A stretch of 5,954 nucleotides of DNA from a virus (lineage: Duplodnaviria > Heunggongvirae > Uroviricota > Caudoviricetes). A model generated the notes under the pieces. It did not search any database, was not told the DNA's origin, and saw nothing but the letters and a program-made list of their open reading frames with translations. The DNA lies in the IMG/VR virus record IMGVR_UViG_2684622669_000017; one strand, given 5' to 3'. Made by a program: the position numbers and the translations under genes. This document shows, one piece after another, positions 1 to 5,954 of the stretch. The first letter of the stretch is position 1, and every line of letters begins with the position of its first letter.

Positions 1-108
1 CGGCAGGGGAACCGCCATACTCGCCGTTGCCATTTGTGTCCCCTTGCTGGTGGTCTTTAACTGCGGGTCAGTCGCCAGCCGCCCGTAAGCTGCTATCTGT
101 GCTGTCAT
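1..108 (-). CDS. Partial CDS (5' end only, continues past the left window edge): probable single-stranded-DNA-binding (SSB-like, OB-fold) protein
   Basis: Minus-strand ATG at 108..106 overlaps the TGA stop of the upstream ORF (ATGA). Translation MTAQIAAYGRLATDPQLKTTSKGTQMATASMAVPLP stays open to position 1. The G-R-L-x-x-D-P-x-L...G...A-x-x-S-x-A-V pattern resembles the N-terminus of bacterial/phage SSB. Absent from the ORF track because it is truncated. Confidence 0.4.
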   Translation of the reverse strand, partial: MTAQIAAYGRLATDPQLKTTSKGTQMATASMAVPLP

Positions 109-356
109 GTTGTCTGCTCTCCGGTTTTAACGTTGATGGTTGTCACCTGTTCCGCTTCGGCAATCTCCCGTTCTGTCAGCGTGGCAAAGTTTGCCGCCGC
201 CGTGGTCATGAATGCGCTTATCAGTTCGGGATGTGCTTTCGCGTATCCTTCCCCGGCATGGCGGTCTATCGTTCTGATTGCCACCTTTAAGGCGTGCTCT
301 GTCATGTCTAATGCGCGATATTTTGGTGCTGTCTTATCTCTGGTTTTTCTGGTCAT
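105..356 (-). CDS. Hypothetical protein (83 aa), function unknown; translationally coupled to the downstream SSB-like gene
   Basis: ORF track; ATG at 356..354 preceded on the minus strand by AGAGGTGAGGA (SD-like, itself part of an iteron); protein-like composition; stop TGA overlaps the next start. Alternative in-frame ATG at 305..303 (MTEHALK...) has no SD. Confidence 0.5.
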   Translation of the reverse strand: MTRKTRDKTAPKYRALDMTEHALKVAIRTIDRHAGEGYAKAHPELISAFMTTAAANFATLTEREIAEAEQVTTINVKTGEQTT

Positions 357-560
357 TCCTCACCTCTACTCACTTTTATTCCTCACTTTTTGTTATTCCC
401 GTCCTGCTCCTCACCTGTTTTTTTTGCTTCTGTAATGCGTTGTTTTGCAATGTATTTTTTATTCCTCACTTTTTGACCTATATACAGGTGAGAAAGTGAG
501 GAATAGCGCTGATTTTTTGTTAAATTACCCGCTATCCTCACTTTTGCTCCTCACTTTTTA
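355..560. repeat. Iteron array with AT-rich core: putative origin of replication of the element
   Basis: Direct copies of (A)TTCCTCAC(T)TTTT(G) at 355-363, 369-377 (partial CTCACTTTT), 378-392, 409-414 (followed by T8 at 418-425), 461-475, 533-546 and 547-559. One inverted copy AAAGTGAGGAAT at 493-504. CACCTG (412-417) and CAGGTG (485-490) form an inverted pair flanking an AT-rich stretch 418-484. Lies immediately 3' of the helicase gene; the last iteron overlaps its stop codon. Confidence 0.7.
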
Positions 561-1973
561 CAGTGGGCGCACATAATCACCGTCAATAGCGATTACGCCG
601 TCGCTTTCCAGCTTGTACAGCCAGCGCCGGAAGTTTTTCATTTCATACCCCAGCTTTTTCATATCGTCGCGGAGAAGGGCGATAGTGCACGCCTCCCCGT
701 GTGCTGTTCGCGTTCTGATGCACTGCCATAGCGCGGCATGATTCTCCGTCTTGTTCCCGGCCTCCTCGATGCGCTCCAGTTCAACAGGTGGGCGCGGCTT
801 ATCCACAACCACCAGCGACGTGATTAACTCCCCGTCAGTGTCGGTAAAAAGCTCCACCACGCGTAAATCGTATGCAGCCTCTTTCAGTTCCTCCGCGTCC
901 TTCATTTTGGTGCAGGAGATAACCAGGGCTTCACTGTCTGCACCTTCACGGCGAATACGGTATTCAGCGTCCAGAGATGCACGAAATGCACTGGAACCAC
1001 GCGCCCCCTTTGTTTCATCCTTGCCGGAATGGTGAACCACCAGCACCGTGGCCCCTGTGCGTCGTTTCAGTTCGTCACATCCACGGATAAACGCCCCCAT
1101 ATCCCGCGCGTCATTTTCATCATTACCGCCAAAACACCGCGCCAGCGTATCCAGAATAATCATGCGTACCGGTTTACCCGTTTCCCTTTCAACCTGGCGG
1201 GAAGCGATGACCATTTCATCAACATCAAACTGGGCTGCCGGAAAAATCGGGCGGTTTACCAGGTACAGATTTTCCACCCGTTTATCATTAACGATTTCCC
1301 ATGCCTTGATACGGCGGGGGACACCAATGCCACCTTCACCGACGACATACATCACCGAACCATGCGCCACCCTGCGGCCTCCCCAGTGACGGCCAGTGGC
1401 AACATGACACGCCCAGGAACACGCGAGGAACGATTTATAGGAACCGCTCGCGCCGTATGTGCTGCACAATGAATTAGCCGGAATCACGCCCTTAACGACA
1501 TAATCAAGCTGTGTGTCGTACCCTGCAGATCCAATGCTCATTGGTAGCGTGGTTTTTCGCTGGCTGTATTGCTCGTCAGTAAGTATTTCCCCGCGCTCTG
1601 CCTGTTCGCGGATCCGTTGCAGGTAGTCGTGCCAGTTCTCCAGCTTCTGGCTGTGCATTCCATCAGGGTAATAATTCGCATCCCGTACACCTGCCGCCGC
1701 CAGCTTTTGCCCGATAGCATTAATATTTGACGGCTTGATGTGGCCTGCCTTGTACAGCCGGACACAATAGCGACCATCGTCGATGATTTTCAGGTCTGCC
1801 AGTTCGTCAAGCTGGCTGTCTCCAAGCCATACGGGTGGCACGTTGTCGCCAGCAAGTCGCCCGTCCTGTTCCTGCCATTGTTTCGCGTGCGCCCAGGCAT
1901 CACTACCCGCAAAAATAATGACTTCGGTCATTTTGTCGTGTGGCTGTTTTTTTAAGTTCGGTGCCAGTTTCAT
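558..1973 (-). CDS. RepA-like replicative helicase / replication initiator, AAA_25 (RecA-fold) ATPase family, with C-terminal putative winged-helix DNA-binding region
   Basis: 471-aa ORF, ATG at 1973..1971 with AGGGT SD-like 5 nt upstream, ATGA overlap with the upstream ORF stop. Motifs: P-loop-like VIPANSLCSTYGASGSYKSFLA (Walker A variant with Y in place of the second Gly, verified on the DNA as TAT), Walker B MIILDTL, and VLVVHHSGKD characteristic of RepA/AAA_25 helicases. Iterons lie immediately downstream. Confidence 0.8.
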   Translation of the reverse strand: MKLAPNLKKQPHDKMTEVIIFAGSDAWAHAKQWQEQDGRLAGDNVPPVWLGDSQLDELADLKIIDDGRYCVRLYKAGHIKPSNINAIGQKLAAAGVRDANYYPDGMHSQKLENWHDYLQRIREQAERGEILTDEQYSQRKTTLPMSIGSAGYDTQLDYVVKGVIPANSLCSTYGASGSYKSFLACSWACHVATGRHWGGRRVAHGSVMYVVGEGGIGVPRRIKAWEIVNDKRVENLYLVNRPIFPAAQFDVDEMVIASRQVERETGKPVRMIILDTLARCFGGNDENDARDMGAFIRGCDELKRRTGATVLVVHHSGKDETKGARGSSAFRASLDAEYRIRREGADSEALVISCTKMKDAEELKEAAYDLRVVELFTDTDGELITSLVVVDKPRPPVELERIEEAGNKTENHAALWQCIRTRTAHGEACTIALLRDDMKKLGYEMKNFRRWLYKLESDGVIAIDGDYVRPL

Positions 1974-2269
1974 TTTTTACCCCTGAATGCGTTAATCATG
2001 TTTTTCATTTTCTGAATATTTGCCCGTGCCTTTGCGTTGCTGGTGGGCTGTTTGCGTGGTGTGGCCTGTATCAGTGAAAAATCACGCCGGAACTGATAAA
2101 CAGGCATCACGCAGTCATAACCGTACCCATCACGGCGGTAAGTAACGCACCGTCCCGCCACGCTTTTAATCGTTACCGTGCCGCCGTAGTTATCCCGGAA
2201 AATATCGCCGGGGCGGATTTCAGGCCGAGCGGGGCCGCTGGCAGTAAAGCCAGAATTTTTCTTTTTCAT
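1970..2269 (-). CDS. Hypothetical protein (99 aa), function unknown; translationally coupled to the helicase gene
   Basis: ORF track; ATG at 2269..2267 preceded by GAGGAA 7 nt upstream; TGA stop overlaps the helicase ATG (ATGA). No recognisable motif. Confidence 0.6.
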   Translation of the reverse strand: MKKKNSGFTASGPARPEIRPGDIFRDNYGGTVTIKSVAGRCVTYRRDGYGYDCVMPVYQFRRDFSLIQATPRKQPTSNAKARANIQKMKNMINAFRGKK

Positions 2270-3337: not shown

Positions 3338-3517
3338 ATGGCAACGGGTACAACAAACGCAAAATCACAAGCTCTAAAGGCTCGTGTACCACACGAAATA
3401 GTAAACGCCATGGAATCAGTGAAAGAATCAGGCGAAAGCACATCACAATTCATCATTACGTCAATGCAAGGCGAGATCAAACGCCGCCAGCGGCGCAAGG
3501 CCAAAGAGCAGGAGTAA
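3338..3517 (+). CDS. Ribbon-helix-helix (Arc/MetJ/CopG-like) DNA-binding protein, 59 aa; candidate repressor of the divergent promoter
   Basis: ATG at 3338 with GAGG 7 nt upstream. Translation MATGTTNAKSQALKARVPHEIVNAMESVKESGESTSQFIITSMQGEIKRRQRRKAKEQE. Beta-strand (LKARVP) - helix A (HEIVNAMESVKES) - G-x-S turn - helix B matches the RHH signature (compare Arc NLRWPREVLDLVRKVAEENGRSVNSEIYQRVME). Palindromic repeats lie upstream. Confidence 0.65.
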   Translation: MATGTTNAKSQALKARVPHEIVNAMESVKESGESTSQFIITSMQGEIKRRQRRKAKEQE

Positions 3518-3574
3518 CCATCACCAGCGCCGTGGTGTGAGTAACTACGGCGCATTGCTATGCAGGACAACACA

Positions 3575-3748
3575 ATGACCGATAAAGAATTGACCAAAAC
3601 ATTATCACCGGCACGGAAAAGACGGCGCAGAAAGATAGAACATGAATCAGAAAGATTCGCACCTTGTTCGTTTGCTCTTGAGAAATTCCTTAAAGAGCAC
3701 AGGAAAAAGCTCTCGTTGCAAACCTTGGAACGAACCAAATCTGACTGA
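3575..3748 (+). CDS. Small basic protein (57 aa; 62 aa if translation starts at the upstream ATG 3560), function unknown
   Basis: ATG at 3575 preceded by AGGA (3564-3567) with 7-nt spacing; the ORF-track start at 3560 lacks an SD. Translation MTDKELTKTLSPARKRRRRKIEHESERFAPCSFALEKFLKEHRKKLSLQTLERTKSD; same frame as the RHH gene but separated by two stop codons. Confidence 0.45.
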   Translation: MTDKELTKTLSPARKRRRRKIEHESERFAPCSFALEKFLKEHRKKLSLQTLERTKSD

Positions 3749-4006: not shown

Positions 4007-4213
4007 TTACGCAGCCGTTCCGCGCGCTTCTTCCTCGCGCTCTTTCAGCCAGGCCAGCACTTCATCTTCATACCAGCCAACACGACGCAGACCGATTTTG
4101 AATCCTTTCGGGAATTTTCCGGCGTTGATCATGTCCTGTAGCGAACTGTCTGCCTTGATGCGCAGAATATTTTTTACTTCCTGACGGGTAAGTATTTTTC
4201 TGATTGTTTCCAC
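4007..4213 (-). CDS. alpA: AlpA-family phage regulatory protein (transcriptional activator / excisionase-like, winged HTH)
   Basis: 68-aa ORF starting at GTG 4213..4211 with GAGGT 8 nt upstream. Translation ...ILTRQEVKNILRIKADSSLQDMINAGKFPKGFKIGLRRVGWYEDEVLAWLKER aligns with E. coli AlpA motifs (FPK, VGW, E-x-E-[IV]-x-x-W-L). Confidence 0.8.
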   Translation of the reverse strand: METIRKILTRQEVKNILRIKADSSLQDMINAGKFPKGFKIGLRRVGWYEDEVLAWLKEREEEARGTAA

Positions 4214-4712: not shown

Positions 4713-5954
4713 TTACACGGCACGGATACCCCTTTTACCACTGGCTATGGTCACTCCGGTAGCTGCGGCCTCTACAAATTCCCCCCACCAGCGCATAAGC
4801 ACCACGCGCTTTTCCAGGTAGTTACTTCGGTTATATGCTCGCCTTACCTCGTTCGTGTCCACGTGTGCGAGTGCGGCCTCGATTACGTCCGGCTCGAATC
4901 CTTCCTCGTTCGCTGCTGTACTGAATATGGCGCGTAATCCGTGAGACACCAGCACACCAGCGTAACCCATCCGGCGTAATGCAGCGTTAGCGGTCTGGCT
5001 GCTCATTGGTAGCATTGGATTTTTAAGGCTGGGAAAAACATGTTCCCTGTGTGCGCTGATTGGCTTCATGGTTTCCAGTACAGCCATAGCCTGACCGCAA
5101 AGGGGGATCACATGGTCACGGCGCATCTTCATGCGTCCGGCTGGAATCGTCCAGGTTTCGGCATCGAGATCTATTTCTTCCCAGCGTGCGGCGGCTGCTT
5201 CGGCTGGGCGTGCTACGGTCAACAGTTGCCACTCGATCAGCAATCTGGTTTGCCGTTCTATGCTGGCGACCGATAAATCGTGCATTAGCTGCGGTAGCTG
5301 TTCCGGTCGGATGGTTGGCATGTGCTTTTTGGTGGGTGAGGGAAATGCCTTGCGGACGTTAGCAGCGGTGTTGATGTCAATCAGCCCACTGTTGGCGGCA
5401 AAATCCATCACTTCATTGATGCGCTGCAAAACGCGTTTCAGAGTTTCCAGGTTGCCGCGTGCTTTAATGGGTGTGAGTATCTCAACAAAGCGGCGAGCGG
5501 TGAGGGTATCTATTGGCGTTTTTCCGATGTACGGGAATACGTATTTTTCCATGGATCGCCAGATATCCTTAATCGTGTTGTAAGCGAGATTCTGGCCTTT
5601 TTTCATCTCGTACCAGTCAGAGGCAACTTTTTCGAACGTGTTGCCCTTTTTCCGACTCTCTGCTTCACGTTTCCGGCGTTCGTGGTCCTGTGGGTCAACT
5701 CCCTTCGCTATGAGTGACCTGTATTCATTCCGTCGTTCTCTGGCATCGGACAGGGAAACATCATTCAGCGATCCGAGGCTGATGATAGTCCGTTTTTTAT
5801 CTGCCGGGCGGTAGTACGTAAAACGCCAGATTTTTGATCCGGAGGGTTTCACCAGAAGAAATAATCCTCCGCCATCCTGCAGGGTGTATTCCTTTTCCCC
5901 TGGTCGTGCGTTTTTGATCTCCGTAATAGTTAGTGGGGTGGTTTTTCGTGCCAT
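4713..5954 (-). CDS. int: Site-specific tyrosine recombinase/integrase, P4 family (N-terminal arm-binding DUF4102-type domain plus catalytic domain)
   Basis: 413-aa ORF; ATG is the last three nucleotides of the window (5954..5952); TAA at 4715..4713. N-terminus MARKTTPLTITEIKNARPGEKEYTLQDGGGLFLLVKPSGSKIWRFTYY is typical of P4-type integrases (compare E. coli IntA). Catalytic motifs are present: R in TVARPAE, HGLRAIF (H-x-x-R), and tyrosine in RRAYNRSNY. Confidence 0.92.
   Translation of the reverse strand: MARKTTPLTITEIKNARPGEKEYTLQDGGGLFLLVKPSGSKIWRFTYYRPADKKRTIISLGSLNDVSLSDARERRNEYRSLIAKGVDPQDHERRKREAESRKKGNTFEKVASDWYEMKKGQNLAYNTIKDIWRSMEKYVFPYIGKTPIDTLTARRFVEILTPIKARGNLETLKRVLQRINEVMDFAANSGLIDINTAANVRKAFPSPTKKHMPTIRPEQLPQLMHDLSVASIERQTRLLIEWQLLTVARPAEAAAARWEEIDLDAETWTIPAGRMKMRRDHVIPLCGQAMAVLETMKPISAHREHVFPSLKNPMLPMSSQTANAALRRMGYAGVLVSHGLRAIFSTAANEEGFEPDVIEAALAHVDTNEVRRAYNRSNYLEKRVVLMRWWGEFVEAAATGVTIASGKRGIRAV

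Follow-up and report, generated by a model that had tools for sequence, protein, structure and literature searches.

Does the non-coding stretch that follows the helicase gene of this viral element serve as its replication origin, and, if it does, which part of which protein reads it? We examined a window of 5,954 nucleotides, by which we mean the whole stretch of DNA that was analyzed, in which a cluster of short repeats lies between the helicase gene and a small ORF. The original prediction had read this cluster as an iteron-type origin, and both the comparative sequence evidence and the structural models support that interpretation by inference. We put the probability at roughly 85% that positions 358-560 are the cognate replication origin of a Gram-negative phage-inducible chromosomal island (PICI), and we infer that the region is active in replication.

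The island and its repeat cluster

By ORF calls and Pfam, the window is a single unidirectional minus-strand operon apart from two small plus-strand ORFs (Table 1). The order read in the window is integrase, AlpA, DUF4222, RepA-type helicase, repeats, and small ORF, and close relatives add a gene for SSB. The closest E. coli relatives are 91-96% identical over the window and occupy tRNA-Pro/yejM, where the single closest relative is found, or other island sites. In close relatives the 83-aa ORF is followed by genes for SSB, the major capsid protein, a decoration protein of the head, and the small terminase (TerS). Integrase, AlpA, a unidirectional operon, a replication gene, late/packaging genes, a size of ~10-20 kb, and a dedicated attachment site are all found in these islands. 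The gene set matches that of the Gram-negative PICIs of Fillol-Salom et al. 2018 (PMC6092414), and yejM-luxR islands, EcCIED1a.1 among them, appear in Table S1 of the same paper. Judged by its gene content, the element is a Gram-negative PICI of E. coli.

Table 1. Coordinates of genes, predicted domains, and repeats in the window (5,954 nt; position 1 is its first letter)
Feature	Positions	Strand	Remarks
Tyrosine integrase	4713-5954	-	ORF calls and Pfam
AlpA-type regulator	4007-4213	-	ORF calls and Pfam
Several small ORFs			Within the window operon
DUF4222 protein	1970-2269	-	ORF calls and Pfam
AAA_25 "RepA family" helicase, 471 aa	558-1973	-	ORF call; ATPase core at residues 152-320
Predicted C-terminal winged-helix domain, residues 405-471	561-761	-	Helices 410-424, 431-440, and 448-457; beta hairpin 461-470
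Asn447 codon	633-635	-	Just before helix 3; putative determinant of core base 5
Non-coding stretch			~200 bp, between helicase and 83-aa ORF
Iteron 1	549-558	-	Exact core; overlaps helicase stop codon 558-560
Iteron 2	536-545	-	Exact core
Iteron 3	492-501	+	Sole inverted copy; right arm of 460-505 palindrome
Palindrome centre	479-486	.	Non-repeat, TGTATATA on helicase strand; candidate melting nucleation point
Iteron 4	464-473	-	Exact core; left arm of palindrome
A/T-rich spacer, ~45 bp	419-463	.	Between the two repeat sets; candidate DNA-unwinding element
Iteron 5	409-418	-	CCTCACCTGT, 2 mismatches; kept as A(G/A)GTG-N-GG across genera
Iteron 6	381-390	-	Exact core
Iteron 7	368-377	-	ACTCACTTTT, 1 mismatch; follows residue 447 loosely only
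Repeat-like copy 8	358-367	-	2 mismatches; doubles as Shine-Dalgarno region of 83-aa ORF; without the specificity switch
83-aa ORF, phrog_1231 (E=1e-50)	105-356	-	Distal boundary of the putative origin

Some features of the operon outside the repeat region deserve mention. Two poly-C runs differ in length between the window and the 96%-identical locus L001 (C7 and C8, respectively, at 2371-2377; C9 and C7 at 2711-2719), and through the second difference a 154-aa ORF of L001 corresponds to 77-aa and 86-aa ORFs in the window. These differences could be homopolymer sequencing errors, or could mark a pseudogene or slippage-prone tracts. The plus-strand ORFs at 3338-3517 and 3560-3748, which oppose the island's direction between the AlpA region and the replication genes, gave no Pfam match; in the same region of L001, two plus-strand hypothetical ORFs are flanked by Icd-like pseudogene fragments.

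The non-coding stretch holds copies of a 10-nt core, CCTCACTTTT (AAAAGTGAGG on the helicase strand), seven of them direct and one inverted, between 358 and 558, and the original count of at least seven direct copies plus one inverted copy in about 200 bp was correct. At up to one mismatch, all six matches in the window fall in this region. At up to two mismatches the window contains 11 matches, eight of them inside 358-558 and the other three, weak ones, in the remaining 5.7 kb. The binomial probability that at least 8 of 11 matches fall within 206 of 5954 bp is 3e-10, a value calculated after the pattern had been chosen, and an unsupervised 9-mer scan recovered eight copies in the region as against a maximum of five and a mean of 3.2 in control windows. 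Copy spacings are irregular (10-55 bp). A 14-mer, ATTCCTCACTTTTT, is exact at two places only (378-391 and 461-474), and the conserved unit is the ~10-nt core. At either end the cluster overlaps a gene signal, as had been noticed from the sequence: the copy nearest the helicase shares a base with its stop codon, and copy 8 takes in the Shine-Dalgarno sequence (AGAGG) of the 83-aa ORF, at a distance of 6 nt from the ATG.

Iterons 1-4 and copies 5-8 flank an A/T-rich spacer. GC content is 0.30 at 421-480, compared with ~0.53 in the flanks, and this minimum bears out the AT-rich core first placed at 418-484, inside which one exact repeat, iteron 4, falls. The CACCTG/CAGGTG inverted repeats reported to flank that core also exist, with arms at 410-418 and 484-492 that are 100% complementary; their sequence is itself repeat sequence, and relatives do not keep them as such. 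Symmetry is stronger in a 46-bp palindrome (460-505; 23-nt arms, 87% complementary), formed by two opposed repeats around CCTATATACAGG, whose single-stranded fold has a predicted energy of -13.7 kcal/mol (z = -8). On the side of the spacer nearer rep, the inverted copy faces iteron 4 with TGTATATA between them, and the distal set is all direct. While its flanking repeats change, the TGTATATA centre is kept in loci of E. coli, Xenorhabdus, Serratia, Pectobacterium, Morganella, Kosakonia, and Pantoea.

No promoter-like or terminator-like site was detected in 60-760. The region has no DnaA box, no GATC, no lambda-type cos, no Rfam match, and no exact IHF site, with a single 1-mismatch IHF match at 433. 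A region without a DnaA box, GATC, or an exact IHF site fits a self-contained initiator.

Across whole elements the motif occurs in one cluster, plus one or two isolated 1-mismatch matches, and no second, crr-like repeat cluster was found. This distribution bears on the proposal that the repeats serve solely in copy control or incompatibility (through titration or "handcuffing") or as a partition-like site, with initiation requiring a cis element outside 355-560. Iteron arrays outside minimal origins do play a copy-control and incompatibility role in P1, F, and RK2 plasmids, and these provide a precedent. P4, moreover, requires a second repeat region, crr (PMC6092414). The complete elements, however, contain one cluster only, with both the AT-rich spacer and the conserved TGTATATA inside it, and PICIs are reported to have neither a plasmid state nor copy-control genes (PMC6092414). 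We consider a role restricted to copy control or partition very unlikely, and an origin remains the preferred reading of the cluster.

Repeat position and sequence in related islands

Our scan, which covered one genome per species, yielded 80 loci with helicase homologues that are 49-73% identical over residues ~136-471 and belong to Xenorhabdus, Pectobacterium, Serratia, Morganella, Pantoea, Kosakonia, Kluyvera, Citrobacter, and other genera. In about 70 of the 80, the 350 bp past the helicase stop codon contain 5-12 copies of a 9-mer, compared with 3-5 copies in controls from the same locus. Loss of repeat position among homologous elements had been named as an observation that would speak against an origin; instead, in these ~70 loci, positions are kept across genera. 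Offsets from the stop codon are nearly constant, with direct copies at about -14, -2, and +9, an inverted copy at about +52, and further copies at +81, +141, +168, and +180; the inverted copy is found in nearly all relatives. Multiple alignment revealed a shared plan, which begins with two to three direct repeats at the stop codon, a spacer of ~25 bp, the inverted repeat, TGTATATA, and a direct repeat, and continues distally with an A-rich spacer of 45-50 bp followed by three to four direct repeats. As in the window, the first repeat in ~70 of the 80 relatives overlaps the stop codon, which places the putative origin directly 3' of its initiator gene.

The repeat sequence, by contrast with its position, varies by lineage (GTGAGGA, GTGGGGGA, GTGCGGC, or ATATGGGGG). 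Repeats of the form AAGTGAGGA are shared by the window and Xenorhabdus, AAGTGGGGGA by Pectobacterium, Serratia, and Morganella, (A/G)(A/G)TGCGGC by Kosakonia, Enterobacter, and Kluyvera, and ATATGGGGG by Citrobacter sedlakii and Kluyvera ascorbata. Conservation of position but not of sequence is what would be expected of binding sites that evolve together with their binding protein.

Several Xenorhabdus genomes contain two islands each that agree in repeat type and in the residue at helicase position 447 (L006/L017, L007/L012, L014/L020, and L018/L019). To judge from these genomes, a common initiator specificity is evidently no bar to the co-residence of islands. We considered avoidance of incompatibility as the force behind repeat divergence and found it unsupported, given the same-type island pairs that share one genome (L006/L017, L007/L012, and L018/L019).

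Of 5426 complete genomes, 667 contain the C-terminal part of rep together with the origin region. The match to the window begins only at position 359 in some relatives, and in both E. coli island types, that of the window and that of EcCICFT073, the cassette lies between DUF4222 and a phrog_1231 ORF; initiator and putative origin are therefore exchanged as one unit. The module of rep, putative origin, and small ORF is shared by L084, L087, L088, L089, L090, L091, and L092, and is followed by SSB in all seven but L089, and yet the late regions joined to it are very different: their products include capsid and decoration proteins, a ProQ/FinO protein, the regulators PerC and Mor, and a fusion of ClpP protease and capsid of the kind seen in capsid-forming islands. 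A further locus, L093 (E. coli SRY206, beside smrA), holds a decayed copy; its helicase gene is frameshifted and truncated inside the winged-helix domain, and no repeat cluster follows.

This variety of late regions can be set against another possible function, in which the island would use the region for packaging, as a cos/pac site, or for site-specific recombination. Satellites bear helper cos/pac sites, and terminase binding regions hold repeated short motifs, so that a cluster of this kind would have a precedent there. The same cassette, however, also occurs in islands with quite different late and packaging modules, its repeats track the helicase (see below), and no lambda-type cos was matched. 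Published E. coli PICI cos sites, in addition, lie past the origin (PMC6092414). A packaging or recombination site is, in our estimation, extremely unlikely, and we return to the reading of the region as an origin.

The helicase and its C-terminal domain

The only Pfam match of the helicase is AAA_25 (E=1.6e-44), and the only relative by sequence in the PDB is RSF1010 RepA (1g8y), at a marginal E of 0.026. Foldseek searches with the whole model returned RAD51, RadA, and DnaB-type helicases, all matches to the RecA fold only. The full-length AlphaFold model is poor in the core, with pLDDT below 50 at residues 151-177 and 316-399, and confident at the C terminus. The Walker A motif (residues 174-181, window 1431-1454) reads GASGSYKS, with Tyr in place of the usual Gly of GK[ST]. 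Residues S176-G177-S178-Y179-K180-S181 are invariant in 30 homologues, and one Citrobacter relative has Phe at the Tyr position. Going by the motif, a tyrosine at this place is unusual for an active P-loop ATPase.

The N terminus of the family is modular. Proteins of ~350, 455, 470, and 700 aa (e.g., L006, L028, L046, and L074) have a common core and winged helix, and the 700-aa forms place Zn_Ribbon_Prim and Toprim_3 domains ahead of the shared helicase and winged helix. Residues 1-136 of the window helicase (1565-1973) form a well-modelled alpha/beta domain whose only match is phrog_864, "DNA primase". No Pfam Toprim model matched this N-terminal domain, and the idea that residues 1-135 are a decayed Toprim was not upheld, since BLAST against the Toprim region of a Xenorhabdus homologue was not significant (E=1.1).

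The whole-protein fold search was silent on the C terminus, and the domain was therefore modelled alone. An AF2 model of the C-terminal 77 residues reached a pLDDT of 85.7 and a pTM of 0.74, and the same elements appear in the full-length model. The top 50 Foldseek matches of this domain are mostly winged-helix DNA-binding domains, led by DtxR/IdeR, PcaR, histone H1, LexA, Fur, and the MCM winged helix (probability 0.9-0.98, TM 0.57-0.66); taken one by one, their E-values are weak (0.07-0.35) because the domain is small. The suggestion that the C-terminal region could be a winged-helix iteron binder is thereby strengthened by the predicted fold and, in addition, by covariation between the protein and its repeats.

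Comparison of the repeats with variation in the helicase C terminus, which had been proposed together with the origin, revealed that the two covary, and that they do so at residue 447 alone. Among 13 E. coli loci, only 1 of the 207 variable helicase columns (471 in total) partitions the loci by repeat type, and this column is residue 447; no column of ORF83 or of the DUF4222 protein tracks the repeats in the same 13 loci. Asn at this position goes with GTGAGG repeats (the window, L001, L003, L085-L089, and L092) and His with GTGGGG or GTGGGC repeats (L002, L084, L090, and L091), in each case on either patch background, and the switch between Asn and His recurs on three different E. coli helicase backgrounds. 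The patch in question, 417-432, had appeared from the pair formed by the window and L002 to be a candidate specificity determinant, and it was rejected when further E. coli loci proved to shuffle patch and residue 447 independently, with only 447 tracking the repeats. Over the 80 scorable loci, column 447 explains 100% of the base class at the fifth core position (Asn with A, 31 loci; His with G, 11; Lys with G, 32; Ser with C, 6), although these counts are inflated by shared ancestry and the independent support amounts to about three Asn/His switches in E. coli plus the Lys and Ser clades. Winged-helix proteins usually read bases near helix 3, and Asn is commonly paired with A, as His or Lys is with G. 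We suggest from this pattern that Asn447 specifies the A at core position 5, and that the repeats are most likely bound by the helicase's own C-terminal domain.

The individual copies do not follow the switch equally. Iterons 1, 2, 3, 4, and 6 agree with residue 447 in every E. coli locus (13 of 13 for iteron 1), and iteron 7 is discordant with it in L001 and L085. The copy at 358-367 reads GTGAGG in the His447 loci L002 and L084 and GTGGGG in the Asn447 locus L085; since it stands outside the switch, it is more aptly regarded as the region where ORF83 translation starts.

That distal copy matters for a different account of the cluster, in which the repeats are operators for the downstream ORF83-SSB-capsid genes, bound by the helicase winged helix or by another island protein, and the origin lies elsewhere. 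Iteron plasmids autorepress through inverted repeats, the 46-bp palindrome resembles a dimer operator, and the distal copy overlaps both the ribosome-binding site and the start of ORF83, all of which would suit an operator. Yet it is precisely the ribosome-binding-site copy that is off the specificity switch, no promoter-like site was seen in 60-760, and whole elements contain no other repeat cluster or candidate origin. Published PICI origins, moreover, have this arrangement, in which an AT-rich spacer after rep has a repeat set on either side (PMC6092414, PMC9371898). Operator function in place of an origin is quite unlikely on this evidence.

The covariation also weighs on the notion that the repeats act at the level of RNA, as GAGG standby sites that boost ORF83 translation, or have arisen by chance in an intergenic spacer rich in T and C. 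The mRNA strand of each copy reads AAAGUGAGGA, with a Shine-Dalgarno core, and the region is apparently transcribed through, with no terminator. Relatives, on the other hand, keep the architecture with GTGCGGC or ATATGGGGG, which are not Shine-Dalgarno-like, nearly all loci have the inverted copy, and the repeats covary with a protein residue, by which an action on RNA is already largely refuted; chance is excluded by the 9-mer controls and the binomial value given above. Taken together, these two explanations are extremely unlikely, and binding of the repeats as DNA at an origin is the reading that we carry forward.

Relation to known replicons

The origin of PICIs has been placed immediately 3' of rep, with two iteron sets that flank an AT-rich region, and the pri-rep-ori of EcCICFT073 drives plasmid maintenance (PMC6092414); an origin downstream of pri has also been described (PMC10111431). 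The helicases of SaPIs, their Reps, load themselves and use a C-terminal winged helix to bind iterons that lie downstream of rep (PMC9371898). The likeness to SaPI and PICI origins that was first drawn from the placement of the repeats 3' of rep agrees with both accounts (PMC9371898, PMC6092414). Nothing relevant on iteron sequences for this rep type was found in the supplements of PMC6092414, and the literature we searched contains no experiments on an AAA_25-type rep-ori. EcCIEDL933, which has been mobilized experimentally, was considered as a carrier of this rep type, and no confirmation was obtained.

EcCICFT073 (E. coli CFT073, L094:2242-4542) is alike in island type and gene order, with DUF4222 upstream and the phrog_1231 ORF and SSB downstream. 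Its origin, too, directly follows the initiator gene on the 3' side and has an AT-rich region between repeat sets. Its initiator, in contrast, is an unrelated protein of 584 aa with D5_N, DUF5906, and Pox_D5 domains (SF3-type), where the window has an AAA_25/RecA-fold helicase, and its repeats are of the TGTCTACC type and not AAAGTGAGG. Of these two replicons only EcCICFT073 has been tested experimentally. With SaPI Rep/ori systems the window has in common short iterons just downstream and an AT-rich centre, a predicted C-terminal winged helix, and a helicase that would itself be the initiator and need no separate loader. SaPI Reps, however, are SF3 or SF6 (AAA+) helicases and not RecA-fold AAA_25 proteins, and their iterons are five or six nucleotides long and stand opposed on both sides (PMC9371898), compared with seven direct copies and one inverted copy of a ~10-nt core here.

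Other replicons share single features with the window. RSF1010 (IncQ) also has an iteron origin, and its RepA is the nearest solved relative of the ATPase core, at the marginal E of 0.026, but its iteron binder RepC and its primase RepB' are separate proteins, whereas here the helicase and the predicted DNA-binding domain are one polypeptide in place of the three IncQ proteins. P4 alpha, too, is a satellite-encoded multidomain protein, with primase, helicase, and a C-terminal origin-binding domain for short repeats, and that domain has a winged-helix fold. It is, however, a D5-type SF3 helicase that needs both ori and crr; the window has a single cluster and another helicase fold, and Pfam found no D5_N domain in its helicase. 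Rep_3 iteron plasmids (F, pPS10, R6K, and RK2) use a non-helicase Rep with tandem winged helices, phased iterons of 17-22 bp, and DnaA boxes, in contrast to the AAA_25-only match, the absence of a DnaA box, and the irregular 10-55 bp spacings observed here. By fold prediction and covariation, the window protein is instead a helicase with a C-terminal winged helix that would be specific for its own iterons.

We propose the following mechanism. After induction, the unidirectional operon would produce the 471-aa RepA-type helicase, with the repeat region transcribed through. The C-terminal winged-helix domain would read the 10-bp iterons AAAAGTGAGG through helix 3, with Asn447 setting the A at position 5. 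The two mostly direct iteron sets would bracket a centre made up of the inverted pair around TGTATATA and the adjoining 45-bp A/T-rich spacer, and helicase molecules assembled at this centre may open the DNA and self-load their RecA-fold ring, without a separate initiator or DnaA. With the short form of the protein, host primase and polymerase would carry out synthesis, while long relatives would bring their own Zn-ribbon/Toprim primase; because the N terminus of the window protein has no Zn-ribbon or Toprim Pfam match, priming is presumably by the host. An island-encoded SSB would be supplied from just downstream in close relatives.

A broader proposal follows on this mechanism, namely that these proteins are a distinct class of self-loading initiator-helicase, in which a RecA-fold, RepA/DnaB-like SF4-type motor is joined to a winged helix that reads the origin (with a Zn-ribbon/Toprim primase added in the long relatives) without DnaA or a loader, and in which specificity is set largely by residue 447 (Asn with A, His or Lys with G, Ser with C). 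We offer this proposal tentatively, at slightly less than even odds. Iterons directly 3' of the initiator gene are already published for PICIs, and in this respect the window is an ordinary example that leaves the accepted picture of PICI replication unchanged. What may go beyond the published accounts of PICIs is an initiator of a different helicase fold and a single residue that sets iteron specificity.

For the biology of these islands, the analysis fixes the position and anatomy of the putative origin of a very common E. coli satellite replicon. It also provides a candidate specificity rule, residue 447 against iteron base 5, which could help to predict which co-resident islands have a common initiator. 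Delivery vectors based on PICIs could likewise be designed with its help so that each replicates without interference from the others. If the rule is true, one-residue specificity would work as a simple code that can be re-programmed to keep satellite replicons independent of one another.
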